Source of the DNA: Kluyvera genomosp. 3
GTDB taxonomy: Bacteria; Pseudomonadota; Gammaproteobacteria; Enterobacterales; Enterobacteriaceae
Length of the DNA: 24,000 nucleotides
Assembly (NCBI GenBank): GCA_002211745.1
Contig: CP022114.1
Span: 1,806,645-1,830,644, forward strand
Direction of reading: 5' to 3'
Shown here: piece after piece, positions 1 to 23,527 of the stretch
Layout of the letters: every line of letters starts with the position of its first letter
How positions within the stretch are numbered: the stretch's first letter is position 1
The notes under the pieces: model-generated
What the model was told of the DNA's origin: nothing
Database searches by the model: none
The model's input: the letters and a program-made list of their open reading frames with translations, nothing else
Program-made: the position numbers and the translations under genes

Positions 1-383
1 TCCGGTGATATCAATTGGCTGGGCAAGCGTAGCGATATCAAGGAATTAATTGAAAGTGTGGATATAGTCGCTTTGCCATCTGTCTACTCTGAAGGTATTC
101 CTCGAATTCTTTTAGAAGCCGGTGCAATCGGTCGTCCTGTTATAAGTTTTGATACTGGTGGTTGTGGGAGTTTAATACTTGACGGTTATAATGGTTTCCT
201 TGTGCCTAAAGGAAATGTGAACCTATTTTCTCAGAAGCTTGGTATCCTTATTAGCGATCCTCTTGAGCGCACTAAGATGGGCAGAATGCCAGAAAGCGAG
301 TAGAGGAAAAGTATTCATCTACCGTTGTCATACGAAAAACCGTTCAAATCTATAATAAACTCATAATGCAAGAAGTGCTCTAA
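1..383 (+). pseudogene. GT-B (family 4-like) glycosyltransferase, 3' portion, 5'-truncated by the window edge. Last gene of a surface-polysaccharide cluster upstream of gnd. One -1 frameshift as written.
   Basis: Frame 1 reads ...DIVALPSVYSEGIPRILLEAGAIGRPVISFDTGGCGSLILDGYNGFLVPKGN..., containing the E-x7-E (EGIPRILLEA) motif typical of GT4 C-terminal domains. After ...RTKMG the frame breaks at AA 285-286. Adding one base gives ...GRNARKRVEEKYSSTVVIRKTVQIYNKLIMQEVL* with a stop at 381-383. The region is visibly AT-rich compared with the rest of the window. Confidence 0.7.
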
Positions 384-553
384 TATTGAGCAACAACTTA
401 TCAGAGCTTGTCGCTATGCGTTTTTTAGTAACTTATGACAGTTATTAATTTCACTCAAACATCTAATTCTTTATACAACTTGCCGTTCTCCTAATATATA
501 ATTTCTTAAATTCTGTCTGTTCATAGACAGATACCACCTGACAGGAGTATGTA

Positions 554-1957
554 ATGTCTAAGCAACAAATCGGCGTAGTCGGTATGGCTGTGATGGGGCG
601 CAACCTGGCGCTCAACATCGAAAGCCGCGGTTATACCGTCTCTATCTTCAACCGCTCCCGTGAAAAAACCGAAGAAGTTGTCGCTGAGAATCCAGGCAAA
701 AAGCTGGTTCCTCACTACACGGTCAAGGAGTTCGTCGAGTCTCTTGAGACCCACGTCGTATCCTGTTAATGGTGAAAGCAGGCGCGGGCACCGATGCTGC
801 CATCGATTCCCTGAAACCTTACCTTGATAAAGGTGACATCATCATTGATGGTGGTAACACCTTCTTCCAGGACACCATTCGTCGTAACCGTGAGCTGTCA
901 GCTGAAGGCTTCAACTTCATTGGTACCGGCGTGTCCGGTGGTGAAGAGGGCGCGCTGAAGGGCCATCCATCATGCCTGGCGGCCAGAAAGAAGCGTATGA
1001 GCTGGTTGCGCCTATCCTGACTAAAATTGCCGCTGTGGCGGAAGACGGCGAGCCTTGCGTAACCTACATCGGTGCTGACGGTGCGGGTCATTACGTGAAA
1101 ATGGTCCACAACGGTATCGAATACGGCGACATGCAGCTGATTGCTGAAGCCTATTCTCTGCTGAAAGGTGGCCTGAACCTGTCTAACGAAGAGCTGGCAA
1201 CCACCTTCACCGAGTGGAATGAAGGCGAGCTGAGCAGCTACCTGATCGACATCACCAAAGACATCTTCACCAAAAAAGATGAAGACGGTAAATACCTGGT
1301 TGATGTGATCCTCGACGAAGCGGCGAACAAAGGCACCGGTAAATGGACTAGCCAGAGCTCTCTGGACCTGGGCGAACCGCTGTCGCTGATCACTGAATCT
1401 GTTTTCGCGCGCTACATCTCCTCCCTGAAAGAGCAGCGCGTGGCGGCATCTAAAGTGCTGACTGGCCGCAGGCTAAACTGGCTGGCGATAAAGCAGAGTT
1501 CGTTGAGAAAGTGCGTCGCGCACTGTACCTGGGTAAAATCGTCTCCTACGCGCAGGGCTTCTCTCAGCTGCGTGCCGCGTCTGACGAGTACAACTGGGAT
1601 CTGAACTACGGCGAAATCGCGAAGATCTTCCGCGCGGGCTGCATCATTCGTGCACAGTTCCTGCAGAAAATCACCGACGCCTACGCTGAAAACGCGAGCA
1701 TCGCCAACCTGCTGCTGGCGCCGTACTTCAAAAATATCGCTGATGAATACCAGCAGGCGCTGCGTGACGTCGTGGCCTATGCTGTGCAGAACGGTATTCC
1801 GGTACCGACCTTCTCTGCAGCAGTGGCGTACTACGACAGCTACCGCGCTGCGGTACTGCCAGCGAACCTGATTCAGGCTCAGCGTGACTACTTCGGTGCG
1901 CATACCTATAAACGCACTGATAAAGAAGGTGTGTTCCACACCGAATGGCTGGATTAA
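554..1957 (+). pseudogene. gnd: 6-phosphogluconate dehydrogenase (decarboxylating), split into 4 ORF pieces by three -1 frameshifts. Probably intact in vivo.
   Basis: ORFs 554-769, 769-1020, 972-1604 and 1511-1957 tile the full Gnd sequence ([27 protein letters not shown]...HTEWLD). The breaks are at C runs 750-752, 963-964 and 1466-1467. The span is 1404 nt, which is 1407 (468 aa plus stop) minus 3. Confidence 0.95.
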
Positions 1958-1984
1958 TCTGAATTAGTTCATCCGTAAAGCCAG

Positions 1985-2011
1985 GCCCGGAGCGCATCTC
2001 CGGGCTTTTTT
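1985..2011 (+). terminator. Rho-independent terminator after gnd
   Basis: Stem gcccggag / ctccgggc with loop cgcat, followed by a T run at 2006-2011. Confidence 0.8.
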
Positions 2012-2160
2012 ATTGTCTGAAAACAGCATTCAGTCAGGTCTGATAGGCGGCGACACGGTAATTCGCGATATACTGGCCGCAAGCCGATCCGACAACGTTG
2101 GGTCCCACGGTGGTGATGCATTCACCCTCAAATGTTTAACCGGAAGAAGTTACAGAGCGA

Positions 2161-3324
2161 ATGAAGATAACTATTTCAGGAACAGGTTACGTCGGCCTGT
2201 CGAACGGCATTCTGATCGCCCAGCACCACGAAGTGGTGGCCCTGGATATCGTTCAGGCCAAGGTCGACATGCTGAATCAGAAACAGTCGCCGATCGTCGA
2301 CAAAGAGATCGAAGAGTATCTGGCGACCAAACCGCTGAATTTCCGTGCGACCACTGATAAGCGCGATGCTTATCGCGATGCAGACTATGTGATCATCGCC
2401 ACCCCGACCGATTACGATCCCAAAACGAACTATTTCAATACGTCCAGCGTTGAGTCTGTTATCCGTGACGTCGTTGAAATCAACCCCAATGCGGTGATGG
2501 TTATCAAATCTACCATTCCGGTAGGCTTTACCAATTCGATTAAAGAAAAACTGGGTATCGACAATATTTTCTTCTCGCCGGAATTCCTGCGTGAAGGCCG
2601 TGCGCTGTACGATAACCTGCATCCGTCGCGTATCGTTATCGGCGAACGTTCTGACCGAGCCGAGCGTTTTGCCGCGCTGCTGCAGGAAGGGGCAGTGAAG
2701 AAGGATATCCGACGCTGTTCACCGACTCGACCGAAGCCGAAGCTATCAAGCTATTCGCGAACACCTACCTCGCGATGCGCGTGGCTTATTTCAACGAGCT
2801 GGATAGCTATGCGGAAAGCCTGGGCCTGAATTCCGCCAGATTATTGAAGGCGTGTGCCTGGACCCGCGTATTGGTAATCACTATAACAATCCATCTTTTG
2901 GTTATGGTGGTTATTGCCTCCCGAAAGATACTAAACAACTGCTGGCAAATTATGCGTCTGTGCCAAATAACATCGTCGGTGCGATTGTTGACGCTAACCG
3001 TACCCGCAAGGACTTTATTGCCGATTCTATCCTGGCCCGCAAGCCGAAAGTGGTTGGGGTATATCGCCTCGTCATGAAGTCAGGATCCGACAATTTCCGC
3101 GCATCCTCGATTCAAGGGATTATGAAACGAATCAAAGCGAAAGGCATTCCAGTGATTGTGTATGAACCTGCGATGAAAGAAGATGAATTCTTTAATTCCC
3201 GCGTTGTACGCGATTTGGATGCATTTAAGCAAGATGCGGATGTCATCATTTCTAACCGGATGGCGGAAGAATTGGCTGATGTGAAAGAGAAGGTGTATAC
3301 CGCGATCTGTTTGGTAATGATTGA
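2161..3324 (+). pseudogene. ugd: UDP-glucose 6-dehydrogenase with three -1 frameshifts as written. Probably intact in vivo.
   Basis: ORFs 2161-2829, 2775-3077 and 2852-3343 tile Ugd ([21 protein letters not shown]...[15 protein letters not shown]...[22 protein letters not shown]). The breaks are at CC 2709-2710, 2833-2834 and 3300-3301. After correction the C-terminus reads ...KVYTRDLFGND* with a stop at 3322-3324. The span is 1164 nt, which is 1167 minus 3. Confidence 0.93.
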
Positions 3325-3345
3325 CAGGTTCGTGCAGCAATAATA

Positions 3346-3369
3346 AAGCCCGGTGTTATCGCCGGGCTT
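3346..3369. terminator. Hairpin between convergent ugd and hisIE, possibly a bidirectional terminator
   Basis: Stem aagcccgg / ccgggctt with an 8-nt loop, lying in the 57-nt gap between the two stop codons. The flanking U tracts are weak. Confidence 0.5.
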
Positions 3370-3380
3370 AAATTTATCCG

Positions 3381-3972
3381 TTACTTATGCCGTTCCCGCA
3401 AATTCTCAATCACCGCCGTCAAATCCAGCTCCTGATCCTGCAATAGCACCAGCAGGTGATACATCAAATCCGACGCCTCATTCTTCAGCTCAAACTTATC
3501 GTGCACCGTGGCGGCCAGCGCGGTTTCCACGCCTTCTTCGCCCACTTTCTGCGCGATACGCTTGGTGCCGCTGGCGTACAGCTTAGCGGTGTACGAGCTT
3601 GCCGGGTCGGCGCTTTTACGCTCGGCCAGCAGCTGCTCAAGCTGATACAGGAACAACCACTGGTGGCTGGTGTCGCCGAAGCAGCTTGAGGTGCCTTTAT
3701 GGCAGGTCGGGCCAATCGGGTTAACCAGCACCAGCAGAGTGTCGTTGTCGCAGTCGGGCGCGATGCTTACCACATTGAGGAAGTGGCCGGAGGTTTCTCC
3801 CTTGGTCCACAGGCGCTGTTTGGTGCGTGAGAAAAAGGTCACTTTGCCCGTTTCCTGCGTTTTGGCCAGCGCTTCCTCGTTCATATAGCCAGCATCAGCA
3901 CTTCACCGGATACCGCGTGTTGGATAATGGCGGGCATCAGTCCGTCGGTTTTTTGCCAGTCCAGTTGTTCAG

Positions 3973-3979
<7 letters not shown>
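3381..3979 (-). pseudogene. hisI: Bifunctional phosphoribosyl-AMP cyclohydrolase / phosphoribosyl-ATP pyrophosphatase with one -1 frameshift near the 5' end
   Basis: ORF 3381-3884 matches HisIE from ...[33 protein letters not shown] onward. The N-terminus [31 protein letters not shown] is readable upstream in another frame. The break is at + strand CC 3889-3890. The ATG at 3979 overlaps the hisF stop. The span is 599 nt, which is 600 minus 1. Confidence 0.93.
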
Positions 3980-9476
<5,497 letters not shown>

Positions 9477-9481
9477 GGCGC

Positions 9482-10379
9482 TTACTCCATCATCTTCTCA
9501 ATCGGCAGTACCAGAATCGAGCTGGCACCCAGGGACTTCAGTTTTTCCATGGTTTCCCAGAACAGGGTTTCGCTGCTGACCATGTGCATCGCCACGCGCT
9601 GCTGGTCGCCCGCCAGCGGCAGAATGGTTGGGCGCTCGGCGCCAGGCAGCAGGGCAATCACTTCTTCCAGGCGTTCGGTTGGCGCGTGCATCATGATGTA
9701 TTTCGATTCGCGCGCCTGAATCACGCCCTGAATACGGGTTAACAGACGGTCAATCAACTGCTGCTTGGCGTCGCTCATCTCGCCGTCGCGTTGAATCAGG
9801 CAGGCTTTAGAGCGGAACATCACTTCTACTTCACGCAGGCCGTTGGCTTCCAGCGTCGCGCCGGTTGATACCAGGTCGCAGATGGCGTCGGCCAGACCGG
9901 CACGCGGGCCACTTCAACAGAGCCGTTCAGCAGGCAGGATTTAAAGCTGATGCCTTTCTGGTCGAGATAACGTTTGAGCAGGTGCGGGTAAGAGGTGGCA
10001 ATACGTTTGCCGTCGAGCGCAGCCGGGCCGTTCCAGGCTTCATCCGCCGGGGTCGCCAGCGACAGACGGCAGCCGCCGAAGTCCAGACGACGCAGGGTAA
10101 AGTAGCGCGGGTCTTCGCCTTGTGCACGGCGGCTCAGCAGCTCTTCTTCCAGCACGTTTTCACCGATAATGCCGAGATCGACCACGCCATCCATAATCAG
10201 CCCGGAATATCGTCATCGCGAACGCGCAGGATATCGATCGGCATGTTCTCCGCCATCGCGATCAGGCGCTGGGTGTGGAGATTGATTTTGATACCACAAC
10301 GGGCCAGTAATTCGCGTGAATCATCGCTCAGGCGGCCTGATTTCTGAATAGCTATGCGTAAACGGCTGTTATCTAACAT
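9482..10379 (-). pseudogene. hisG: ATP phosphoribosyltransferase with two -1 frameshifts
   Basis: ORFs 10197-10493 (true start is the ATG at 10379, [29 protein letters not shown]...), 9826-10194 and 9482-9823 tile HisG. The breaks are at + strand CCC 10201-10203 and GGG 9906-9908. The span is 898 nt, which is 900 minus 2. Confidence 0.93.
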
Positions 10380-10413
10380 TCTGTATTCCTCATTACCCTG
10401 CTGAATTTGGTTC

Positions 10414-10446
10414 AAAAAAAAGCCCCGGAAGATGATCTTCCGGGGC
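10414..10446 (-). terminator. his operon attenuator terminator
   Basis: On the minus strand: gccccggaag-atcat-cttccggggc followed by eight Ts (UUUUUUUU in the transcript). It lies between hisL and hisG and closely resembles the E. coli/Salmonella his attenuator. Confidence 0.9.
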
Positions 10447-10508
10447 TCTCTTGCGTTCATGCACCACTGGAAGATCTGAACGTCTCCCAGCACACATCGC
10501 CTGAAAGA

Positions 10509-10559
10509 CTAGTCAGGATGATGGTGATGATGGTGGTGTTTAAATTGAACGCGGCTCAT
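10509..10559 (-). CDS. hisL: his operon leader peptide (16 aa, seven consecutive His codons)
   Basis: The minus strand reads atg agc cgc gtt caa ttt aaa cac cac cat cat cac cat cat cct gac tag, translating to MSRVQFKHHHHHHHPD*. Confidence 0.95.
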   Translation of the reverse strand: MSRVQFKHHHHHHHPD

Positions 10560-10597
10560 AAATTTCTCGTTGAATGACTATTCACTTGATGTCTTTT

Positions 10598-10627
10598 AAC
10601 CTAAACCACTTTTGTCGTTGAGCGCAA
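10598..10627 (-). promoter_or_regulatory. Primary his operon promoter (-35 TTGCGC, -10 TAGGTT)
   Basis: The minus strand reads ...cTTGCGCtcaacgacaaaagtggtTTAGGTTaaaagacatca..., which matches the recalled GTGGTTTAGGTTAAAAGACATCA core of the E. coli/Salmonella his promoter. Confidence 0.65.
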
Positions 10628-10737
10628 GCGCTTTTTTCATTCATTAAATCAATTCATGTTACCACTATAAATTGTCAGTTTTCTCGCTGTGGCGTAGCCT
10701 TATGAGAGGAGTGCAGGATGAACCAGGAGATAGCGCA

Positions 10738-11558
10738 ATGAAGAAGGTGGCAATTGTCGGTTTAGGGTGGCTGGGTATGCCGCTGGCGCTGTCGTTGATG
10801 GCGCGCGGCTGGCAGGTAACGGGCAGTAAAACGACAGAGGATGGCGTGGAAGCCGCACGGATGTGCGGGATTGACAGCTATCCGTTGCGGCTCGATCCGC
10901 AGCTGGTTTGTGAGGCTGATGACCTTGATGCCTTAATGAATGTTGACGCGCTGGTCATTACGCTCCCGCGCGCCGCAGCGGCCCGGGCGAAGATTTCTAT
11001 CATCAGGCGGTGCAGGAGATTGTGGACTCCGCGCTGGCGCACCAGATTCCGCGCATTATCTTTACCAGCTCCACTTCGGTCTACGGTAAAGAAGAAGGGC
11101 TGGTAAAAGAGAGCACGCCGCGTGAACCGGTTACCGCTAGCGGTAGAGTATTAAAAGAGCTGGAAGACTGGCTTCATCAATTGCCGGGGACGTCGGTGGA
11201 TATTCTGCGTCTGGCGGGGCTGGTGGGGCCGGATCGACATCCAGGGCGATTCTTTGCCGGTAAATCCGCGCCGGATGGTCAGCACGGCGTGAATCTCGTC
11301 CATCTGGAAGATGTTGTTTCTGCTATTACGCTTTTATTACAGGCGCCGAAGGGTGGACACATTTATAACATTTGTGCGCCGTTGCATCCCGCTCGCGGTA
11401 TTTTCTATCCGCAAATGGCGCGCGAGCTGGGGTTAGCGGTTCCGAGCTTTAGCGACAGCGGTAATGGAAAAGGCAAAATCATCGACGGTAATCTCATTTG
11501 CCGTGAGCTCGGCTTTGAGTATCAGTATCCTGACCCGTTACGTATGCCGATGGAATAA
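10738..11558 (+). pseudogene. yeeZ: NAD(P)-binding Rossmann-fold protein YeeZ (epimerase/dehydratase-like) with one -1 frameshift
   Basis: The ATG at 10738 is preceded by AGGAGA. MKKVAIVGLGWLGMPLALSLMARGWQVTGSKTTEDGVEAARM...LVITLP shifts at CCC 10965-10967 and continues in ORF 11010-11558 (...QAVQEIVDSALAHQIPRIIFTSSTSVYG...FEYQYPDPLRMPME). Confidence 0.85.
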
Positions 11559-11720
11559 TCGCCTCTGTTTTAGCAAATAGTGCTATTGATGAGATTTATG
11601 ATTCGGGAGTTGCTGAATTATCAGTCGTTTAGACGAGAAGGCGTGCTGATTATGCTCTCAGCGGCTTGTCTTTTTGCTACCGTTTGGGGCAAAATATGTC
11701 GAATGTAAAAAATTGAGATT

Positions 11721-11754
11721 AACCGACGTGCTTGCCGCGTCGGTTATTTTTTTT
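11721..11754 (+). terminator. Strong rho-independent terminator about 160 nt downstream of yeeZ
   Basis: Stem aaccgacg / cgtcggtt with a 9-nt loop, then one A and a T8 run at 11747-11754. Confidence 0.8.
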
Positions 11755-11853
11755 ACATCAAAACAACCATCAAATTAAAGAGGCCGGGCTTCGTACCGGA
11801 TAGATACTTACTTAAAAAACGACAGTCGTTGTCGCTGAGGAAACAGAAAAAAA

Positions 11854-11916
11854 ATGGGGCAATTTTTCAATTTTGCGCCGGCCATCGCCGTAATGGAGAC
11901 TGACCGTGTCGCATAA
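11854..11916 (+). CDS. 20-codon upstream ORF overlapping the plaP start, a possible leader peptide. Its position resembles the E. coli small-protein gene yoeI (recalled, unverified).
   Basis: atg ggg caa ttt ttc aat ttt gcg ccg gcc atc gcc gta atg gag act gac cgt gtc gca taa translates to [26 protein letters not shown] lies 12 nt upstream. The stop at 11914-11916 is 11 nt inside plaP, whose GTG is at 11906. Confidence 0.4.
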
Positions 11917-13264
11917 CGTTACTCCAAACACCTCTCGCGTGGAATTACGTAAAACGCTTACGCTTATTCCGGTTGTTATGATGGGCCTGGCCTATATGCA
12001 GCCGATGACGCTGTTTGATACGTTCGGTATCGTATCTGGCATGACCGATGGTCACGTGCCAACAGCTTATGCCTTCGCTCTGGTGGCGATTCTGTTCACC
12101 GCGCTGAGCTACGGTAAGCTGGTGCGCCGTTATCCTTCGGCGGGCTCTGCCTACACTTATGCCCAGAAATCCATCAGCCCGACCGTTGGCTTTATGGTGG
12201 GTTGGTCTTCGCTGCTCGATTATCTGTTCGCGCCGATGATCAACATTCTGCTGGCAAAAATCTATTTCGAAGCGCTGGTGCCGTCGATACCGTCATGGGT
12301 ATTCGTGATTGCACTGGTTGCCTTTATGACCGCCTTTAACCTGCGCAGTATCAAATCTGTCGCCAACTTTAACACCGTGATCGTGGTGTTCCAGGTGGTA
12401 CTGATTGCCGTGATCCTGGGTATGGTGATTTATGGCGTGGCGCACGGCGAAGGTGCCGGTACGCTGGCAAGCAACCGTCCGTTCTGGTCGGGTGATGCGC
12501 ACGTGATCCCTATGATTACCGGGGCCACGATTCTGTGCTTCTCCTTTACCGGCTTTGACGGTATCAGCAACCTGTCTGAAGAAACCAAAGACGCTGAGCG
12601 TGTGATTCCGCGTGCTATCTTCCTGACGGCGCTGATTGGTGGCCTGATCTTTATCTTCTCCACCTATTTCCTGCAGCTCTACTTCCCGGATATCTCTCGC
12701 TTCAAAGATCCGGACGCCTCACAGCCTGAAATCATGCTGTACGTGGCGGGTAAAGCCTTCCAGGTTGGCGCGTTGATCTTCTCCACCATTACCGTGCTGG
12801 CTTCCGGTATGGCGGCGCATGCGGGTGTGGCGCGTCTGATGTACGTGATGGGTCGTGATGGCGTGTTCCCGAAAAGCTTCTTCGGCTATGTGCATCCAAC
12901 CTGGCGTACCCCGGCGATGAACATCATCCTGGTTGGCGCGATTGCGCTGCTGGCGATTAACTTCGACCTGGTGATGGCAACGGCGCTGATTAACTTTGGT
13001 GCGCTGGTAGCGTTCACCTTCGTGAACCTGTCCGTTATCTCTCAGTTCTGGATCCGAGAGAAGCGTAATAAGACGCTGAAAGATCACTTCCAGTACCTGT
13101 TCCTGCCAATCTGCGGCGCGCTGACCGTTGGCGCACTGTGGGTGAACCTGGAAGAGAGCTCTATGGTTCTGGGCCTGATCTGGGCTGGTATCGGTCTGAT
13201 CTACCTGGCCTGTGTGACCAAAAGCTTCCGCAACCCGGTTCCGCAGTACGAAGATGTTGCATAA
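11906..13264 (+). CDS. plaP: Low-affinity putrescine importer, APC family (intact, 452 aa)
   Basis: GTG start with a GGAG 6 nt upstream. The full-length sequence [45 protein letters not shown]...[12 protein letters not shown] is near-identical to recalled E. coli PlaP/YeeF. Confidence 0.93.
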
Positions 13265-13287
13265 CTGAATTTAAAAACGATGGTTGC

Positions 13288-13319
13288 AAAACCGGAGGTC
13301 TGGGCCTCCGGTTTTTTTT
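13288..13319 (+). terminator. Rho-independent terminator after plaP
   Basis: Stem aaaaccggagg / cctccggtttt with a 6-nt loop, running into a T8 tract. Confidence 0.85.
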
Positions 13320-13454
13320 GTCTTACGTTTGTGGAGTGATTAAAAAATCAATATTAATAACCGTCGGGAATAATATAGAGCTTTTGGTTATTGGAGCCGT
13401 CCGGCGGGGTCAGGAATAATTTTAAGACTGATAATATTGAGTTAATTGATTCTT

Positions 13455-14510
13455 ATGTTGCACATGATAATAAGTGGCATGATTTGCGGGGCCTTACTGG
13501 GATTCGTTATGCAGCGCGGTCGTTTCTGCCTGACGGGCGGCTTTCGCGATATGTATATCACCAAAAATAACCGCATGTTTTACGCACTGCTGATTGCTAT
13601 CTGTATCCAGAGTATCGGCGTGTTCGCGCTGATCCAGCTTGGCCTGGTGCAGTACGATGCGGGCGCATTCCCGTGGCTCGGCACCGTGGTGGGCGGATTT
13701 GTTTTTGGTATCGGTATCGTTTATGCGGGCGGCTGCGCCACCGGCACCTGGTATCGTGCCGGGGAAGGGCTGATTGGCAGTTGGATTGCACTGGTCACCT
13801 ATATGGTGATGAGCGCGGTGATGCGCTCGCCGCACGCCGCGGGCCTGAACAAGTTTCTTGGTCAGCACACGACCGCGCATAACGGTATTGCCGAAACCCT
13901 GAATATCTCCGTCTGGCCGATTATTGCGCTGCTGGTGGTGGTGACGCTGTGGTTTGTGCGCAAAGAGCTGCGCAAACCAAAGCTGAAGGTTGCCTCTCTG
14001 CCGCCGCGCCGCACTGGCCTGGCGCATCTGCTGTTTGAAAAGCGTTGGCATCCGTTTGTGACCGCCGTGCTGATTGGCCTTATCGCCCTGCTGGCCTGGC
14101 CGCTGAGTGAGGCCACCGGCCGTATGTTTGGCCTTGGTATCACCTCGCCGACCGCCAACATCCTCCAGTTCCTCGTTGGTGGCGATAGTAAATTCCTCAA
14201 CTGGGGCGTCTTCCTGGTGCTGGGGATCTTTATTGGCTCGTTTATCGCCGCGAAAGCCAGCCGTGAATTCCGCGTCCGCGCTGCCGATGCCAGCACCACG
14301 CTGCGTAGCGCCAGCGGCGGCGTGCTGATGGGCTTCGGTGCCAGCATTGCCGGCGGCTGCTCGATCGGCAACGGCCTGGTGATGACGGCGATGATGACCT
14401 GGCAGGGCTGGATTGGCCTGGTATTTATGATTCTCGGCGTGTGGTGCGCGTCGTGGATGTTGTATGTTCGCCCGCAGCGGAAAGCAAAACTGAAAACCGC
14501 AACGGCTTAA
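13455..14510 (+). CDS. yeeE: Thiosulfate uptake inner-membrane protein YeeE/TsuA (intact)
   Basis: MLHMIISGMICGALLGFVMQRGRFCLTGGFRDMYI...GGCATGTWYRAGEG...GGCSIGNG... matches E. coli YeeE. I prefer the ATG at 13455 (351 aa versus 352 in E. coli) over the track's TTG at 13446. Confidence 0.9.
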   Translation: MLHMIISGMICGALLGFVMQRGRFCLTGGFRDMYITKNNRMFYALLIAICIQSIGVFALIQLGLVQYDAGAFPWLGTVVGGFVFGIGIVYAGGCATGTWYRAGEGLIGSWIALVTYMVMSAVMRSPHAAGLNKFLGQHTTAHNGIAETLNISVWPIIALLVVVTLWFVRKELRKPKLKVASLPPRRTGLAHLLFEKRWHPFVTAVLIGLIALLAWPLSEATGRMFGLGITSPTANILQFLVGGDSKFLNWGVFLVLGIFIGSFIAAKASREFRVRAADASTTLRSASGGVLMGFGASIAGGCSIGNGLVMTAMMTWQGWIGLVFMILGVWCASWMLYVRPQRKAKLKTATA

Positions 14511-14522
14511 GGAGTAGAAAAA

Positions 14523-14747
14523 ATGGTTGTGAAGAAACTGGACGTAGTCACGCAGGTTTGCCCGTTCCCGTTAATTGAAGCGAAGGCGGCGATGGCGGAA
14601 CTGGCCAGCGGCGACCAGCTGGTGATTGAGTTCGACTGTACTCAGGCGACGGAAGCCATCCCGCAGTGGGCGGCGGAAGAGGGCTTTACGGTCACGGACT
14701 ATCAGCAGTCTGGCGATGCGGCGTGGACCATCACCGTACAGAAATAA
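14523..14747 (+). CDS. yeeD: TusA-like sulfurtransferase YeeD/TsuB (intact, 74 aa)
   Basis: MVVKKLDVVTQVCPFPLIEAKAAMAELASGDQLVIEFDCTQATEAIPQWAAEEG... carries the conserved CPxP motif. It starts 12 nt after yeeE. Confidence 0.9.
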   Translation: MVVKKLDVVTQVCPFPLIEAKAAMAELASGDQLVIEFDCTQATEAIPQWAAEEGFTVTDYQQSGDAAWTITVQK

Positions 14748-14761
14748 TGCCCCAGGCATCA

Positions 14762-14792
14762 AGCGACGCCAGGAAGATTTTCCGGCGTCGCT
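14762..14792. terminator. Hairpin between convergent yeeD and sbcB, probably a bidirectional terminator
   Basis: A 9-bp stem agcgacgcc / ggcgtcgct with a 13-nt loop, lying in the 53-nt gap between the two stop codons. Confidence 0.55.
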
Positions 14793-14800
14793 GCGTTGAA

Positions 14801-16224
14801 TTAAACAATCTCCTGCACGTACTGATACAGCGCCTTCAGCAACGACAGCTTCTCGTTATTCCCCTCATACTGACCGTACAACATCTCCAGTTGCTGGGCG
14901 TAGGCCTGTAAAAATTCCGGGGTGAAGATCTGCCGACGATGCTCCAGCCAGCGCTGTTGTTCATTTTCATCCAGCGTGCCCGGGAAGTTACGCGCGCGAT
15001 AGTTAAACAGCAGCTTCTCGATACGCTTGTCGGCGAAGGTGATGTCCAGCGCCGGCAGATTGCGTGGCTCGGTCTCAAGCACGATTTTCATCGCCGCACG
15101 GTCGGCGTCGCTAAAGAAGCCGTTATAGAGCTGGGCGTCAACGTTATCCGACGGCACAAACGGCTCGGCTTCGGCGAATATCGCCACCACCTTCTCGCGC
15201 ACCTGCGGGTTATCGCGCAGCTGCTTCAGGTTATCCAGACAGTGCTGGCGGTTGATGCCCAGACGGTCGGCATCCTCCGGCCGTAGGGTATTGGCCTGCG
15301 CCAGCACCGGGCACTTATTCAGATGCACCAGCTTAATCGGCACCGGCGAACTGTCGCCGAGCTCGGCCTTCGGCGTATACAGGCGCTCGCGCAGCGTATC
15401 GGCATCCAGCTCGAGCAGCGGGGCGATGTCGCCCGCCAGGTCGACCATGATCACCGCGTTGCGGTTATCCGGATGCCAGGCTAGCGGCGCAATCCAGCTG
15501 GTGTTTCCGCGCCAGGCGCCAAACATTCCCGAGACATGCACCAGTGGCTTCATCTGCGGGACGTCAATCAGCGTCATCAGCTTGTTTTTGCCCCGGTAGG
15601 CATACAGATAATCAAAAAGCTTCGGCTGCTGGGCCTTCACCAGCTTCGCCATGGCGATGGTGGCATAAACGTCGGCCATCGCATCATGGGCGTTGCTGTG
15701 CTCAATGCCGTTGGCTTTGGTTAAATGTTCGAGGCGAAAGCTCGGCAGACCGTCGTCGTTTTCCGGCCAGTTGATGCCGTCCGGCGCAGGGCATAGCAGG
15801 CGCGCATCACGTCAAGCAGGTCCCAGCGCGAATTGCGGTTTTGCCAGCTCCAGGCGTAAGGGTCGTAAAAGTTACGGTAGAAAATATTGCGCGTCACTTC
15901 ATCATCAAAGCGGACGTTGTTGTAGCCCACTACGCAGGTTTCCGGCACCGTGAAAATATCGTGAATACGTTTGGCAAATGCGGCTTCGTTTTCGCCCTTA
16001 GCGCGCGCTTCCTGTGGGGTGATGCCGGTAATTAACACCGCTTCCGGCTGCGGCAGATAGTCGTCCGCCGGCTTACAGTAAAAAACCTCCGGCTCACCGA
16101 TGATATTGAAGTCCTTATCGGTACGAATAGCGGCGAACTGCGCGGGTCTGTCGAGGGAAGGGCTGGTTCCGAACGTTTCATAGTCGTGAAACAGGAATCC
16201 CGGCGCGCTGGAGGTCTCTTGCAT
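14801..16224 (-). pseudogene. sbcB: Exodeoxyribonuclease I with one -1 frameshift
   Basis: ORFs 15721-16251 (...FLFHDYETFGTSPSLDRPAQFAAIRTDKDFNIIGEPEVFYCKPADDYLPQP...MRACYALR) and 14801-15679 (MADVYATIAMAKLVKAQQPKLFDYL...) tile ExoI. The break is at + strand GG 15783-15784, and the restored link reads PDGINWPENDDGLPSFRLEHLTKANGIEHSNAHDA. The start at 16224 gives 474 aa (E. coli has 475). An alternative ATG lies at 16251. Confidence 0.92.
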
Positions 16225-16438
16225 GGCGTTAACTGTGTCCGTGTATGGCATTGAATGTCCATGGTAAACGATTTAGCCTGGCATCAGAAGCGCCAGAACC
16301 GTTTCTGGAATCCGTCACGCAGGGGATTTTTTTGTGTGAAAATAGAGATATGTCATATTTTCTTGCAATTTAGCCCTGTCATGAGGCACAAACTTCCGTA
16401 AAAAGGACGGCGAATTTGTAAAAGTTGAGGATGTTCCG

Positions 16439-17605
16439 TTGAAAGCCCGTTTTCTTGTTGCCGTTTCTTTGCTCGCTTCGAGCGTTTCGTGTGCATTTGC
16501 CGACAATATCGCAATGCCTGCTGTCACCCCGCCCGCGATTAAAGCAGGTTCGTGGGTACTTATGGATTATACAACCGGGCAGATTTTAACCGCAGGTAAT
16601 GAACATCAGCAGCGTAATCCAGCCAGTCTGACTAAGCTCATGACCGGCTACGTGGTGGATCGGGCTATTGATAGCCATCGCATCACGCCGGACGACATCG
16701 TCACCGTCGGGCGCGATGCCTGGGCGGCGGCTAACCCGGTGTTTAATGGTTCGTCGCTCATGTTCCTGAAAGCGGGCGACCGCGTTTCGGTTCGCGATCT
16801 GAGCCGTGGCCTGATAGTGGATTCCGGCAATGACGCCTGTGTGGCGCTGGCGGACTACGTGGCCGGCGGCCAACCGCAGTTTGTCAAAATGATGAATGAC
16901 TACGTGCAGAAGCTGAATCTGCGCGACACGCATTTTGAAACCGTCCATGGCCTTGATGCACCGGGCCAGCACAGCTCAGCTTACGATCTGGCAGTGCTTT
17001 CGCGCGCGATTATTCACGGTGAGCCAGAGTTCTATCATATGTACAGCGAGAAGAGCCTAACGTGGAACGGTATCACCCAACAGAACCGTAACGGCCTGCT
17101 GTGGGAAAAAACCATGCACATTGACGGCCTGAAAACCGGGCATACTTCCGGTGCCGGGTTTAACCTGATCGCGTCATCGGTGGATGGTCAGCGTCGTCTG
17201 ATTGCCGTTGTGATGGGCGCCGACAGCCCGAAAGGTCGTGAAGACCAGGCCCGCACGCTGCTGCGCTGGGGCCAGCAAAACTTTGATACCGTGCAGGTTC
17301 TGCAAAACGGTAAAAAGGTCGGGACTGAGCGTATCTGGTATGGCGATAAAGAAAAGATTGCTCTCGGTACCGATCAGGATTTCTGGTTAGCGCTGCCGAA
17401 AGCCGAAGTGCCGAATATTAAAGCCAAATACGTGCTGGATAAAAAAGAGCTGGAAGCGCCGCTGGCTGCTCATCAGCGGGTGGGGGAAATCCAACTGCTC
17501 GACCGCGATAAAGTGGTGGCGCAGTGGCCGCTGGTGACGCTGGAGAGCGTTGGCAAAGGTGGGCTGTTCTCGCGCTTAAGCGATTACCTGCATCACAAAG
17601 CCTGA
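16439..17605 (+). CDS. dacD: D-alanyl-D-alanine carboxypeptidase PBP6b (intact, 388 aa, TTG start)
   Basis: It has a signal peptide MKARFLVAVSLLASSVSCAFA, followed by ...GSWVLMDYTTGQILTAGNEHQQRNPASLTKLMTGYVVDRAIDSHRITPDDIVTVGRDAW...SRLSDYLHHKA. This matches E. coli DacD. Confidence 0.93.
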   Translation: MKARFLVAVSLLASSVSCAFADNIAMPAVTPPAIKAGSWVLMDYTTGQILTAGNEHQQRNPASLTKLMTGYVVDRAIDSHRITPDDIVTVGRDAWAAANPVFNGSSLMFLKAGDRVSVRDLSRGLIVDSGNDACVALADYVAGGQPQFVKMMNDYVQKLNLRDTHFETVHGLDAPGQHSSAYDLAVLSRAIIHGEPEFYHMYSEKSLTWNGITQQNRNGLLWEKTMHIDGLKTGHTSGAGFNLIASSVDGQRRLIAVVMGADSPKGREDQARTLLRWGQQNFDTVQVLQNGKKVGTERIWYGDKEKIALGTDQDFWLALPKAEVPNIKAKYVLDKKELEAPLAAHQRVGEIQLLDRDKVVAQWPLVTLESVGKGGLFSRLSDYLHHKA

Positions 17606-17628
17606 TGTAAACTCTATTTAATCGATTA

Positions 17629-17651
17629 GCGCCCTTTTCAGGGGCGTTTTT
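17629..17651 (+). terminator. Rho-independent terminator after dacD
   Basis: gcgccc-ttttca-ggggcg followed by TTTTT. The stem arms are unequal (ccc versus gggg), as if one C is missing here too. Confidence 0.6.
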
Positions 17652-17720
17652 GCGCTCCCGGTGGTCGTTGCCTGACGGAGCAGGTACAATTTGCCCTTTC
17701 GTTTTTTGTGGAGAGTGGAT

Positions 17721-18777
17721 GTGCGTCCGGATAAGTCACTCAGCCCGTTTGAAATACGCTTATATCGACACTATCGTACCGTGCACGGCGCACGCATTGC
17801 GCTGGCTTTTGTCCTGACGTTTCTTATCGTCCGCCTGCTTGGTATTCCTGACGGCTCCTGGCCGTTGATCACGCTGGTGGTGGTCATGGGGCCGATTTCG
17901 TTCTGGGCAATGTGGTTCCGCGCGCCTTCCAGCGGATTGGCGGCACGGTGCTTGGCTCCGCGCTGGGCCTGGTCGCCCTCAAGCTGGAGCTTATCTCACT
18001 GCCGCTGATGATCATATGGTGCGCGGCGGCGATGTTCCTCTGCGGCTGGCTGGCGCTGGGTAAGAAACCGTATCAGGCGCTGTTGATTGGCATCACGTTG
18101 GGGTGGTGGTCGGCGCGCCGCCGGGCGATATGACCACCGCGCTGTGGCGAAGCGGCGACGTGATTTTCGGCTGCCTGCTGGCGATGCTGTTTACCGGTAT
18201 CTGGCCGCAGCGGGCGTTTATCCACTGGCGTATCCAGATGGCGACTTTCGTCACCCAGTTTAACCGTATCTACCAGGCGGGCCTGTCGCCTAACCTGATT
18301 GAGCGGCCGAGGCTGGAAAAACACCTGCAAGCGGTGCTTAACGACGTGGTGAAAATGCGCGGTCTGATCACCCCGGCCAGCAAAGAGACGCATATTCACA
18401 AAGGCATCTTTGAGGCCATTCAGACCGTGAGCCGCAATCTGGTGTGTATGCTGGAGCTGCAAATTAACGCCCACTGGGCGACCCGCCCAAGCCATCTGCT
18501 GATGCTCAACGCTCAGACGCTGCGTGAAACTCAGACCATGACGCAGCAAACGCTGCTCTCCATCGCCCACGCGCTGTACGAAGGTAATCCGCGGCCTATT
18601 AAGGCCAACAGCGAGAAGCTCAACGATATTGTCGCCGAACTGCGCCAACTGGTGAATGACTACAAGGGCGATAACCTTTCGGAAACGCCGATTCATGGTT
18701 ACGTCTGGCTGAGTATGGAACTGGCGCGGCAACTGGAGCTCCTCTCCAGTCTGATGTGCCGCGCATTGCGTAAATAA
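17721..18777 (+). pseudogene. yeeA: Inner-membrane protein YeeA (FUSC/aromatic acid exporter-like family) with two -1 frameshifts
   Basis: The GTG at 17721 aligns with E. coli MRADKSLSPFEIR. ORFs 17691-18008, 17912-18133 and 18103-18777 tile YeeA. The breaks are at GGG 17905-17907 and GGGG 18100-18103. The span is 1057 nt, which is 1059 (352 aa plus stop) minus 2. Confidence 0.88.
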
Positions 18778-18978
18778 AAGGCAGATGCGCAGGGTTTTTC
18801 GTCTGGTTGTTTCGATTCAGCTGGATTTAGGGTTATGATGAACTCAAAGCAAAAATGATTGTTTGCCGCAACGGTGATACGCGAAGTCATACTGGTTGAA
18901 GGGGATATCAGTAATGTGTACCTTATCGTGTAGCCGTTGTTTTAACGAATCCGACTCTCAACTATCAGGGGTATAAAA

Positions 18979-19299
18979 ATGGAAACCACGAAACCTTCGT
19001 TTCAGGACGTACTGGAGTTTGTACGTTTGTTCCGTCGTAAGAACAAACTGCAGCGCGAAATCCAGGACGTTGAGAAAAAGATCCGTGACAACCAGAAGCG
19101 TGTCCTGCTGCTGGACAACCTCAGCGACTACATCAAACCGGGCATGAGCGTTGAAGCTATTCAGGGCATCATTGCCAGCATGAAGGGCGACTACGAAGAT
19201 CGCGTTGATGACTACATCATCAAAAATGCTGAACTGTCCAAAGAACGCCGCGACATCTCTAAGAAACTGAAAGTGATGGGCGAGCAGAAAGGCGAGTAA
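18979..19299 (+). CDS. yeeX: UPF0265 family protein YeeX (intact, 106 aa)
   Basis: [98 protein letters not shown]... is near-identical to E. coli YeeX. Confidence 0.93.
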
Positions 19300-19498
19300 C
19301 CGTCCTTCTCGGGTGGCGGCGCTGCCGTCACCTGGCCATTGTTTTTCCTTCCCCTAATCCCACCGACACAACCTCAGTGACATCGCGAGCAATGCGGAGT
19401 ATAAAGCTCTGTGTTTGATATATTAGCCACAGTTATGTGGGAACATATTGATATCAAAGGAACTCGCTAACAATGCAGCAACATCAGGAAGCGCAATC

Positions 19499-20039
19499 AT
19501 GATGCTGGTGACCGGCGGCGCGCGCAGCGGCAAGAGCCGCCACGCTGAATCGTTACTCAGCCAGTACTCCCGGGTTTGCTATATCGCGACCTCGCAAGTT
19601 TTCGACGCCGAGATGGCCGAGCGCATTCAACATCATCGGGACAGCCGCCCTGCACACTGGCGCACCGAAGAACGCTGGCAACATCTTGCCGACATCATTA
19701 CCCTCACAACGATCCCAGCGAAGCCATCTTACTGGAATGCATCACGACGCTGGTGACCAACATTCTCTTTGCCTCGGATAACCCGGACGAGATTGAGCGT
19801 TGGGACTTCGACGCGCTGGAACGCGAAGTCAACGCAGAAATCGACGCGCTGATCGCCGCCTGTCGAGCATGCCCGTCACCGGTGGTGCTGGTGACCAATG
19901 AAGTGGGGATGGGCATCGTGCCCGAGAATCGTCTGGCCCGGCATTTTCGCGATATTGCCGGCGTGTGAACCAAAAGCTGGCGCAGGCGGCGGATGACGTC
20001 TGGCTGGTGGTATCAGGGATTGGAGTCAAAATAAAATGA
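19499..20039 (+). pseudogene. cobU: Adenosylcobinamide kinase / adenosylcobinamide-phosphate guanylyltransferase with two -1 frameshifts
   Basis: [17 protein letters not shown] (P-loop)...[16 protein letters not shown] shifts at CCC 19701-19703 to [20 protein letters not shown]...[26 protein letters not shown]. It then shifts at GG 19960-19961 to [25 protein letters not shown]. The stop overlaps the cobS ATG. Confidence 0.9.
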
Positions 20040-20773
20040 GCCGACTGTTTTTCGCCACCCTTTCGTTTATGAGCCGTCTGCCGGTACCGCAGCGCTGGTC
20101 GCAGGGGCTGGATTTAGACCGCTACGTCAGCGGCGTGATCACCTTTCCGTTTATTGGCTTGCTGCTCGGGGCGCTAAGCGGCCTGGTATTTATCATCGTT
20201 CAGGCCTGGTGCGGGATCCCGCAGGCGGCGTTCTTTGCGGTACTGGCGCTGGCGTTGCTTACCGGGGCTTCCATCTGGATGGGCTGGCGGATACCTGCGA
20301 CGGCGTTTTCTCCGCACGCCGTCGTGAAAAGATGCTGGAAATTATGCGCGACAGCCGCCTGGGCACTCACGGCGGCCTGGCGCTGATCTTCGTCCTGCTG
20401 GCGAAAGTGCTGGCCGTCAGCGAACTGGCGCTACGCGATACGCCGATGCTCGCCGCCATTGCTGGCGCCTGTATTGCCGGGCGCGCGGGTCGGTGCTGAT
20501 GATGTACCGCCACCGCTATGCGCGGGAAGAGGGGTTGGGCAATCTGTTTATCGGCAAAATCAGCTTCCGCCAGACCTGGGTTACGCTGGTTATCGGCGGC
20601 GCGCTGGTTACCGCCATGCTGGGTATGCATGGCCTGCGTGCGTTGCTGGTGGCGTTTATTGGCGTCTTTATTTTAGGACTGTTGCTGAAACGCACGCTCG
20701 GTGGACAAACCGGCGATACGCTGGCGCGGCCATCGAGCTAGGCGAAGTGATTTTCTTGCTGGCGCTACTGTAA
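20036..20773 (+). pseudogene. cobS: Adenosylcobinamide-GDP ribazoletransferase (cobalamin synthase) with three -1 frameshifts
   Basis: ORFs 20036-20386, 20209-20499 and 20493-20741 plus a restored tail tile CobS ([26 protein letters not shown]...LLTG / [37 protein letters not shown]... / [18 protein letters not shown]...GGQTGDTL / [16 protein letters not shown]). The breaks are at G runs 20264-20267, 20487-20489 and 20723-20724. Confidence 0.9.
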
Positions 20774-20803
20774 GCCAGCGTTTAACGGGGTAAATAATAA
20801 AAT

Positions 20804-21854
20804 ATGCAAACACTGGCTTCATTATTAGCGGCGATTCCTGACGTCGATAACGCCGCGATGGCACAAGCACAGCAACATATTGATGGGCTGCTGAAACCCA
20901 CCGGTAGCCTCGGGCGTCTGGAGTCTTTGGCGGTGCAGCTGGCCGGTATGCCGGGGCTGCACGGTACGCCGCAGGTGGCGAAGAAAGCCATCCTCGTAAT
21001 GTGCGCCGACCACGGGTCTGGCATGAAGGGGTCGCGGTTTCGCCGCAGATTGTCACGGCAATCCAGGCGGCAAATATGACTCGCCATAACACCGGCGTCT
21101 GTGTGATGGCCGCCCAGGCCGGTGCCGACGTGCACGTGATAGATGTCGGTATTGATGCCGATCCGATTCCCGGCCTGATTGATATGAAGGTCGCGCGCAG
21201 CAGCGGCAATATTGCGCAGGGGCCGGCGATGAGCGCGGAGCAAGCGCAGTCGATTCTGATGGCAACTATTCGCTATACGCGTCAACTGGCGGAGCAGGGC
21301 GTGACGCTGTTTGGCGTGGGCGAGTTGGGCATGGCAAATACCACCCCAGCAGCGGCGATGGTGAGCGTGCTCACCGACAGCGAGCCGGAAGCGGTGGTTG
21401 GCGTAGGGGCAAACCTGCCGCAGACGCAGCTGGGGCATAAAGTTGAGGTTGTTCGCCGCGCTATCGCTGTGAACCAGCCTAACGCCGACGATGGTCTTGA
21501 TGTGCTGACGAAAGTGGGTGGTTATGATCTGCTCGGGATGACCGGCGTGATGCTCGGCGCCGCGTCCTGTGGCCTGCCGGTGGTGCTGGATGGTTTCTTG
21601 TCCTATGCGTCAGCGCTGGCCGCCTGCCGGATAGCGCCGGGGGTGAAACCGTATCTGATTCCTTCCCATTTCTCCGCTGAGAAGGGGCGCGTATCGCGCT
21701 CGCGCATCTCGAGCTTGAGCCGTATCTGCACATGGAGATGCGCCTGGGCGAGGGCAGCGGCGCTGCGATGGCGATGCATATCGTCGAGTCGGCCTGCGCC
21801 ATGTATAACCGTATGGGGACGCTGGCGGGTAGCAACATCGTCCTGCCGGTATAA
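20804..21854 (+). pseudogene. cobT: Nicotinate-nucleotide--dimethylbenzimidazole phosphoribosyltransferase with two -1 frameshifts
   Basis: [51 protein letters not shown]...VMCADHG shifts at GGG 21014-21016 to [22 protein letters not shown]...[10 protein letters not shown]. It then shifts at GGGG 21684-21687 to [55 protein letters not shown] with a stop at 21852-21854. Confidence 0.9.
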
Positions 21855-21858
21855 CGGT

Positions 21859-22748
21859 TTATTTCGTTATCATCTGTCGCAGCAGCCATTCCCGCAGCGC
21901 CAAAATATCCTGGCGCTGCGCGGTTTCTTCGGTTGCGACCAGATAGTAGTTCGCGCCGGGCAACGTCATGTTGAACGGTGCGGTGAGCACTCCGCGTTCC
22001 AGCAGATCCCGCGCCAGCAGTTCGCTGGCAATCACCACGCCCTGGCCGCGACCGCGGCCTGTAGCGCATGCGTTTCATCGCTAAAGGTTAATCCAGCCTG
22101 AATGTTTAAACCTTCAGGTCCATAGCGCTTTTGCCAGTTTTCCCAACTCGGTTCCGCGGCTGGAACGCGGCGATTCTCTACATGGAATAAGGTCACCGCC
22201 TGCAAATCCTCGGGTTTGCATATCTTCAGCGTCGGGCTGGCGACGACGATAAAGCGATCGGTATACAGCTGCGTGCAGTGCAGCGCCGCTTCCGGCCTCT
22301 CGCGGTAGCGAATTGCCACGTCTACGGTTCGCTGGCTGAGATCGACGCGCTCGACGCTGGTGTGCAGACGCAGGTCTATGGCCGGGAATTCCGCTTTAAA
22401 GTCGGCCAGCCTGGGCACCAGCCAGTGGGTTAAAAAATTGGACGTGGTGGTGACCGTCAGCGAGGGCGGCTGCTGAGCGCGAAGTACCTGTGTTGTGGCC
22501 TCTTCGAGTGCGGCAAAGGCGCGCTGAGTGCCTGCATAAAGCACTCGGCCACTTTCCGTCAGACTCATGCCCTGCGCGCTGCGCTCGCAGACCCGGCACC
22601 CAAGCACTGACTCCAGAAGTTTGATTTGATGGCTGACTGCCGTGGCGCTCACACCCAGCGTGTCGGCAGCCCGTTTAAAGCTCTGGCTTTCGGCGACTGC
22701 GTGAAACGCCCGCAGCGCGCCAAGCGGCGGGAGGCGTATTTTTTTCAT
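21859..22748 (-). pseudogene. LysR-family (GcvA/AmpR-like) transcriptional regulator with one -1 frameshift near the 3' end
   Basis: MKKIRLPPLGALRAFHAVAESQSFKRAADTLGVSATAVSHQIKLLESVLG... is a wHTH domain. The break is at + strand CC 22046-22047, and the restored tail reads [62 protein letters not shown]. It converges on cobT with a 4-nt gap. Confidence 0.8.
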
Positions 22749-22767
22749 ACCTGAGTTTTTCTCATCT

Positions 22768-22782
22768 ATAGCTGAAAACTAT
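22768..22782. promoter_or_regulatory. Candidate LysR-type binding box (T-N11-A dyad) in the divergent intergenic region
   Basis: ATAG-ctgaaaa-CTAT is a perfect dyad fitting the T-N11-A consensus. It lies 20 nt upstream of the LysR start codon. Confidence 0.4.
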
Positions 22783-22872
22783 GCGTTTGTTTAAGCCATT
22801 ATACAGGGCGTAGGCTACCCGGCATGTAAAGCGAGAAGTGAATTATTCTCATGATGATGTCGGGAGTCGAAA

Positions 22873-23390
22873 ATGAGTACAGAGATACATAACGCTACGT
22901 TGCCGGGCGAAGCGGGTGCGCTACGCGCCATTGCGCTAGGTTCCGGGATCGCTGCGGGTGGCTTGTTGCTGAAAATGGCGACGATTGTTGGCGTGGGCAT
23001 CAGCGTGATCCTGCTGGCCGCATTGGTGGCAAGCGCCGCTCTGGGCGTTGTGCTGGCGCGTCAGCGGGGGATCGCGCGTCACGGCTTTCTGCTGGCCGCT
23101 GCGGCTGGCTGTTGGTATTGCTGACCACGTTGAATGCGCATCCAGGGATGGCACTGTTGCCCGGCATTCTTATCGCTGGCGTAGGGCTGGGGCTGGCCCA
23201 CGGTCAGCACGCTGTCGAGAAACGGATGGGCACGATGATGAGTTGCGCCGTGGCGCTGACGGCAGTCTTACTGATTCAGGCTTGCGCAGCACCAGGCTTG
23301 ATGGGGTACGTCTTTGCGCTTGCGTTGCCTGTCGATCTCGCCTTGCTTGGCGCATTGCTGGTTCGAATTGCGGAACAGGAAAGGCGTTAA
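22873..23390 (+). pseudogene. Hypothetical polytopic membrane protein (about 172 aa), divergent from the LysR gene, with one -1 frameshift
   Basis: ORFs 22873-23124 and 23112-23390 join if one G is restored at GG 23107-23108 (...LLAAAAG-LLVLLTTLNAHPGMALLPGILIAGVGLGLAHG...). The protein is Ala/Leu/Gly-rich with several hydrophobic segments. I recognise no family. Confidence 0.55.
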
Positions 23391-23393
23391 AAG

Positions 23394-23424
23394 CAAAAAT
23401 CCCGCTTAAGTTTCCTTAAGCGGG
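23394..23424. terminator. 10-bp perfect hairpin that terminates tRNA-Asn (minus strand) and probably the + strand membrane-protein gene
   Basis: Stem cccgcttaag / cttaagcggg with loop tttc. On the minus strand it is followed by a U-rich tract (complement of aaaaat). Confidence 0.75.
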
Positions 23425-23435
23425 ATCTTCGAATT

Positions 23436-23511
23436 TGGCTCCTCTGACTGGACTCGAACCAGTGACATACGGATTAACAGTCCGCCGTTCTACCGACTGA
23501 ACTACAGAGGA
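23436..23511 (-). tRNA. tRNA-Asn (anticodon GUU), 76 nt with encoded CCA
   Basis: The reverse complement reads TCCTCTGTAGTTCAGTCGGTAGAACGGCGGACTGTTAATCCGTATGTCACTGGTTCGAGTCCAGTCAGAGGAGCCA, identical to the recalled E. coli tRNA-Asn. Confidence 0.97.
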
Positions 23512-23527
23512 ATCGTTGTGGAGTCGT

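Follow-up and report, generated by a model that had tools for sequence, protein, structure and literature searches.

Homopolymer deletions in the gnd-his-cob region of a Kluyvera chromosome assembly and their probable origin in consensus undercalling

Why would a single short segment of a Kluyvera chromosome carry broken genes for histidine biosynthesis, Gnd, Ugd, exonuclease I and cobalamin salvage all at once? The segment, called the window here, is the whole analysed stretch of 24,000 nucleotides of contig CP022114.1 (Kluyvera genomosp. 3, assembly GCA_002211745.1, positions 1,806,645 to 1,830,644 of the forward strand). It starts at the end of an O-antigen cluster, its genes are ordered gnd, ugd, hisIE-F-A-H-B-C-D-G, an SDR-family oxidoreductase gene, plaP, tsuAB, sbcB, dacD, yeeA, tmaR and cobUST, and past cobT lie a LysR-family gene, an open reading frame (ORF) of 172 amino acids (aa) and a tRNA-Asn gene. 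An earlier note, made from the sequence letters, had claimed that 31 single-base deletions in short homopolymers break 17 genes here through homopolymer undercalling rather than gene decay. Comparison with close genomes raises the number of deletions to 35, and these are very probably consensus homopolymer undercalls in an unpolished assembly, an artefact of a known kind and not biology.

Private deletions and the genes that contain them

The nearest species representatives among the matches listed are Kluyvera, at only ~85% nucleotide identity, and they were rejected as references, being too distant for naming a missing base. The 21 references used were instead 19 conspecific Kluyvera contigs and two E. 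coli chromosomes in which the first 16 kb have a close counterpart. The conspecific contigs were found by exact-protein look-up of DacD and HisB, both intact in the window: ten contigs with an identical DacD cover window positions 6,448-24,000, and nine with an identical HisB cover 378-17,111. All 19 are ~98% identical to the window, the complete chromosome CP078559.1 among them. The E. coli copies were compared over positions 1-16,140, and the gene map was derived from the annotation of two E. coli records together with tblastn searches using their proteins.

Measured against all references covering each site, the window has 35 private 1-base deletions, and every one of them lies inside a run of C or G that has gone from three bases to two, from four to three or from five to four. 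Thirty-one are coding and are spread over 17 genes; the other four are non-coding. No private insertion, nonsense codon, larger deletion or insertion element was found in the window relative to the references, which bears out the earlier description of deletions only. All 31 coding breaks that had been proposed exist, each as a 1-base deletion against every reference covering the site, and tblastn frame jumps coincide with the deletion sites. The broken genes had been counted correctly as 17. The positions given for them match at 29 of the 31 sites. The first break had been placed in an A run at 285-286 and is in fact in the G run at 279-281, and the last had been placed at GG 23107-23108 and lies 4 nt earlier. 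A site near 4889-4891 at which the missing base had been ambiguous is real. As a total, 31 holds for coding sequence and falls short overall, the four non-coding deletions having been missed. Homopolymer lengths were compared with those of close genomes, complete CP078559.1 included, as the earlier note had proposed, and it is the references that carry the longer runs. The deletions are as follows, each line giving the window positions, the run in the window, the run in the references and the place.

279-281, GGG, references GGGG, 3' end of the glycosyltransferase gene (+ strand); the E. coli copies alone cover the site, with a tblastn frame jump
750-752, CCC, references CCCC, gnd, first break
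963-964, CC, references CCC, gnd, second break
1466-1467, CC, references CCC, gnd, third break
2709-2710, CC, references CCC, ugd, first break
2833-2834, CC, references CCC, ugd, second break
3300-3301, CC, references CCC, ugd, third break
3889-3890, CC, references one C longer, hisIE (gene on the - strand)
3995-3996, CC, references CCC, hisF
4116-4118, CCC, references CCCC, hisF
4506-4507, CC, references CCC, hisF
4889-4890, GG, references GGG, hisA
4973-4975, CCC, references CCCC, hisA
7242-7243, CC, references CCC, hisC
7527-7529, CCC, references CCCC, hisC
9094-9096, CCC, references CCCC, hisD
9906-9908, GGG, references GGGG, hisG
10201-10203, CCC, references CCCC, hisG
10423-10426, CCCC, references CCCCC, non-coding, one arm of the His-leader terminator stem
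10442-10445, GGGG, references GGGGG, non-coding, opposite arm of the same stem
10965-10967, CCC, references CCCC, SDR-family oxidoreductase gene (yeeZ-like)
15783-15784, GG, references GGG, sbcB
17632-17634, CCC, CCCC in 10 of 10 references, non-coding, dacD-yeeA spacer
17905-17907, GGG, references GGGG, yeeA, first break
18100-18103, GGGG, references GGGGG, yeeA, second break
19351-19354, CCCC, references CCCCC, non-coding, tmaR-cobU spacer
19701-19703, C run short by one, cobU, first break, adjoining a private synonymous C>T at 19704
19960-19961, GG, references GGG, cobU, second break
20264-20267, GGGG, references GGGGG, cobS, first break
20487-20489, GGG, references GGGG, cobS, second break
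20723-20724, GG, references GGG, cobS, third break
21014-21016, GGG, references GGGG, cobT, first break
21684-21687, GGGG, references GGGGG, cobT, second break
22046-22047, CC, references CCC, LysR-family gene (- strand)
23103-23104, GG, references GGG (two references), 172-aa ORF (+ strand)

Three breaks each fall in gnd, ugd, hisF and cobS, two each in hisA, hisC, hisG, yeeA, cobU and cobT, and one each in the family-4 glycosyltransferase gene, hisIE, hisD, the SDR/yeeZ-like gene, sbcB, the LysR-family gene and the 172-aa ORF; those of these genes that the DacD- and HisB-anchored contigs cover are all called full-length there. Against the E. coli copies there are 23 gaps over positions 1-16,140, each of them one homopolymer base absent from the window, and no insertions; 22 are in G/C runs and the remaining one is in a T run at 421-426. 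This T7 to T6 difference (site 427) was considered as a thirty-sixth deletion and rejected: T6 is found in the conspecific contig L065 too, so that the shorter run is natural variation. The His-leader terminator stem still pairs, both of its arms being one base shorter (C5 to C4 and G5 to G4). The simplest reason for a change in both arms is that errors strike 5-base G/C runs more often than any other class, with six of nine shortened.

What do the broken genes encode once the missing bases are put back? Re-insertion yields 22 ORFs of annotated length without internal stops, and the restored lengths of gnd (1407 nt), ugd (1167), hisF (777), hisD (1305) and yeeA (1059) agree with the earlier arithmetic, in which each of these genes measured its ortholog's length minus its number of breaks. 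The restored proteins align end to end and without gaps to their orthologues in CP078559.1, in the conspecific contig L063 and in the E. coli copy, with identities of 97.7-100% to the first two; identity reaches 100% for HisD, HisG, HisF and the SDR protein, whose genes have one to three breaks each. The window has 61 private substitutions: 5 are intergenic, and the coding ones comprise 45 synonymous and 11 non-synonymous changes. Past the first break of each broken gene, in the restored frame, the private changes number 20 synonymous and 6 non-synonymous. Relaxed constraint past the lesions, looked for by this substitution ratio and by protein identity, was not found, in agreement with the earlier observation that amino-acid conservation continues beyond each shift.

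Run length, base, strand and position

Which homopolymers are shortened, and which are spared? Runs of at least three bases were counted on the restored sequence, with the following outcome.

C runs of 3: 10 of 140 shortened
C runs of 4: 9 of 19 shortened
C runs of 5: 2 of 2 shortened
C runs of 6: 0 of 1 shortened
G runs of 3: 5 of 217 shortened
G runs of 4: 5 of 49 shortened
G runs of 5: 4 of 7 shortened
A runs of at least 3: 0 of 291 shortened
T runs of at least 3: 0 of 294 shortened, site 427 excluded

The shortening rate climbs with G/C run length, and not one of the 585 A/T runs of at least three bases is changed; the intact ones include an A8, a T8 and altogether 25 runs of length 6 or more. 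The contrast between G/C and A/T runs has p=1e-12 as computed with site 427 still included. None of the two-base runs in the window is shortened. Coding and non-coding sequence are affected alike, with 31 of 388 coding G/C runs (8.0%) and 4 of 47 non-coding runs (8.5%) shortened (p=0.78), and no flanking-base or methylation-motif context was seen when the surroundings of the deletions were inspected for one.

The deletions are unevenly distributed along the window. All 76 G/C runs keep their full length between 11,021 and 15,800, where plaP, tsuA, tsuB and the 3' part of sbcB lie. In positions 1-11,020, runs of C on the + strand are shortened far more often than runs of G (17 of 79 versus 4 of 107, p=2.4e-4), and beyond 15,800 there is no strand bias (C 4 of 60, G 10 of 113). 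The idea of a sharp switch from C to G between the two halves of the window is thus only partly true: the first 11 kb are C-biased and the last 8 kb are unbiased. The C-over-G bias is independent of gene orientation: + strand C is lost from gnd and ugd, encoded on the + strand, and equally from the his operon, which is encoded on the - strand. Cumulative GC skew climbs across the entire window, which we read as a single direction of replication, and the C-over-G bias therefore does not track replication.

None of the 35 deletions is present in any of the 19 conspecific contigs or in the two E. coli copies. In a 17.1-kb alignment the window has 22 private gap columns, and the nine conspecific genomes have none (eight of them) or one (the ninth), an excess well above anything that chance would give. 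Indel polymorphism among the conspecifics is confined to three columns in intergenic A/T runs (~10413, 13311 and 14778), and where the printed context shows the run it is at least 8 bases long. When the 421-426 site (relative to E. coli) is included, the natural indel sites are all intergenic A or T runs with fully readable lengths of 6-9 bases. Long intergenic A/T runs are where genuine slippage variation is expected, in contrast to the artefactual deletions in G/C runs. In all other respects the window resembles its relatives: its identity to the references, ~98%, equals the identity of the references to one another, and the GC>AT-biased spectrum of its private substitutions is also that of theirs. 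Substitution-type sequencing errors were for this reason rejected as a component of the private differences, which are mostly synonymous, share the references' spectrum and look natural.

Sequencing artefact or mutation

How would 35 deletions of this kind arise? We infer that the sequencing or consensus step is the cause. If the consensus had not been polished with accurate reads, consensus calling would report C or G runs of three to five bases one base short at 35 places, and the outcome would be 31 apparent frameshifts in 17 genes together with four silent spacer deletions. The affected genes are almost certainly intact in the organism. Mutation filtered by selection is unlikely because the deletions affect G/C runs only, are never accompanied by insertions, are blind to coding, vary by region and strand, and occur in one assembly of more than 20. 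The uneven rate, the local C-over-G excess and the clean stretch of 4.8 kb probably reflect how deeply, and by reads of which strand, each part of a low-coverage or unpolished long-read consensus was covered. The earlier preference for undercalling over gene decay is thereby supported by evidence from run length, coding-blindness, sharing among genomes and restoration. Some considerations pull the other way. The case for an artefact is built on sequence comparison; the 17 broken genes are all dispensable on rich medium, and viability alone would be compatible with real lesions; and signals of selection are blind to extremely recent events.

With older nanopore chemistry long A/T runs are expected to fail first, and the same is expected of flow-based chemistry; unlike this expectation, the A8, the T8 and the other A/T runs of at least 6 bases in the window are correct. 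The earlier note had named an unpolished long-read or flow-based assembly as the source, of which the undercalling stands, and the G/C-only pattern fits PacBio-only errors better than those of flow-based or older nanopore chemistry. PacBio-only assemblies contain systematic single-base deletions in homopolymers, mostly of G or C, as the ARAMIS study found (PMC8574707); high coverage does not prevent them, a protein can be truncated at several places, and a longer run need not fare worse. The window is similar in having deletions and not insertions, in G/C homopolymers, in a fraction of the runs and with several breaks per gene. It differs from that study, which concerned mainly runs of 4-6 bases in high-GC genomes, in that 15 of the 35 affected runs are only 3 bases long. 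The density here, ~1.5 errors per kb, is high and suggests low coverage or no polishing. In nanopore data artificial deletions occur mostly in homopolymers of at least 3 bases (PMC11927395), and the window is likewise one in which 1-base deletions are concentrated in such runs. Because the pattern is G/C-only and long A/T runs are spared, we lean tentatively towards a platform of the PacBio continuous-long-read type; nanopore is a possible source to which we give rather less weight, and some other platform is unlikely. Frameshifts in draft long-read assemblies are known to pseudogenise genes, according to the description of Kastor, a tool for repairing such errors (PMC12007338).

The strongest biological alternative is a mismatch-repair mutator burst. 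More generally, the deletions could be real products of very recent hypermutation, brought about by mismatch-repair loss or by a frameshift mutagen acting on G:C runs, a scenario that we consider highly improbable. Homopolymer deletions are the classic product of slippage, acridine-type mutagens favour G:C runs, and the synonymous bias of the private substitutions would show merely that the breaks postdate the substitutions. A burst does not account, however, for A8 and T8 runs that remain intact while runs of only 3 bases are shortened, for the lack of any +1 event, or for just 61 private substitutions, most of them synonymous, beside 35 indels. The C-over-G bias shifts along what we read as one replication direction and ignores gene orientation, which an asymmetry of replication or transcription would not do. 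With 17 of 24 genes affected, the same rate across the genome would presumably break most essential genes. In mismatch-repair-defective E. coli the ratio of substitutions to small indels is ~5.6:1 (30,061 versus 5,324), and the indel rate is set by run length, with hotspots such as nine A.T pairs (PMC8510543). The window is like these mismatch-repair-deficient enterobacteria in having single-base indels in mononucleotide runs. It is unlike them in that their mutator spectra comprise insertions, events in A.T runs and ~5-6 substitutions per indel, none of which it shows. A narrower form, in which a chemical or polymerase-based process has produced real -1 frameshifts in G:C runs and as yet no other changes, is likewise very improbable. 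Such a burst, if real, would have deprived the strain of histidine synthesis, Gnd, Ugd, exonuclease I and cobalamin salvage in a single step, and sequencing would have taken place before decay went any further.

Could the genes instead be genuine pseudogenes of a host-restricted lineage undergoing reductive evolution? Many biosynthetic genes are broken together, those for histidine and cobalamin salvage included, which superficially looks like early genome decay. Recently host-restricted genomes have mixed lesion types and relaxed constraint, unlike the window, whose one lesion type is private to a single assembly and whose genes remain constrained. The frameshifts come without nonsense codons, insertions, larger deletions or insertion elements, the substitutions past the breaks are those of genes under unrelaxed constraint, the lesions are missing from 19 of 19 conspecific contigs, coding and non-coding runs are shortened equally, and the window falls within ordinary population diversity. 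The likeness to host-restricted genomes such as that of Sodalis glossinidius (PMC7067036) consists in the number of inactivated metabolic genes in an enterobacterium, and reductive evolution is in our estimate even less credible than a mutator burst. The least credible explanation, to which we attach next to no weight, is that some of the breaks serve as phase-variable contingency switches or as sites of programmed frameshifting. Contingency loci do switch through single-base changes in homopolymer length. Their tracts, however, are long, vary within populations and usually lie close to the 5' end of surface or restriction genes. The runs here have just 3-5 bases in the references, keep the same length in all other genomes and are dispersed through the interior of housekeeping genes, with as many as three in one gene.

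Consensus undercalling, if it is the explanation, gives the finding a practical value, as a warning about an unpolished source record, rather than a biological one. Taken at face value the record would add 17 false pseudogenes in 24 kb to the databases and imply a Kluyvera auxotrophic for histidine and devoid of Gnd and Ugd. At the same rate throughout the assembly, ~70% of genes would be mis-called, and analyses of pan-genome, completeness and metabolic reconstruction would be distorted. The signature of deletions only, in G/C runs only, blind to coding and locally strand-biased, may help to flag similar records without reads.

The locus and its relatives in Kluyvera and E. coli

The features of the window around and between the deletions are these.

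1-380, + strand, family-4 glycosyltransferase gene, 3' end only
554-1957, + strand, gnd
2161-3327, + strand, ugd
3384-10379, - strand, hisIE, hisF, hisA, hisH, hisB, hisC, hisD and hisG
10413-10533, - strand, His leader (Rfam RF00514, 111 bits)
between the His leader and sbcB, the SDR-family oxidoreductase gene (yeeZ-like), then plaP, tsuA and tsuB
11679-11755, + strand, match to the enterobacterial small RNA STnc240 (Rfam; 60 bits, gathering score 55), in the SDR-plaP spacer
on the - strand, sbcB (exonuclease I)
beyond sbcB, in this order, dacD, yeeA, tmaR, cobU, cobS and cobT
on the - strand, LysR-family regulator gene, 296 aa once restored
+ strand, 172-aa ORF
23436-23511, - strand, tRNA-Asn

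To which Kluyvera does the segment belong? The complete chromosome CP078559.1, ~98% identical to the window, has been called Kluyvera ascorbata strain Colony288 (PMC12460296). The corresponding locus of the K. ascorbata type strain (ATCC 33433) is merely ~80-88% identical to the window across the region. No listed representative exceeds ~85%. The lineage that comprises the window and CP078559.1 may be a separate genomospecies, or its representative may lie outside the matches listed.

The window was also searched by megablast against complete E. coli genomes (n=5,426), and positions 1-16,197 match five of them at ~97.5%, the remaining E. coli being at ~82%. In the two E. coli copies used as references the block lies at 9001-25220 (L001) and 501-16700 (L002), and it contains the glycosyltransferase gene, gnd, ugd, the entire his operon, plaP, tsuAB and most of sbcB. 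Identity to these copies falls to ~77% just beyond ~16,190, close to the start of sbcB. The glycosyltransferase fragment at the other end of the window matches the E. coli copies, and the conspecific contig L063 has other genes upstream of gnd. From its sequence, this looks like a Kluyvera-type O-antigen/his region that entered E. coli through interspecies recombination. Outside the block, sbmC is absent between dacD and yeeA (17606-17744) in the window and in its conspecifics, and the E. coli record L002 has sbmC at 18244-18717.

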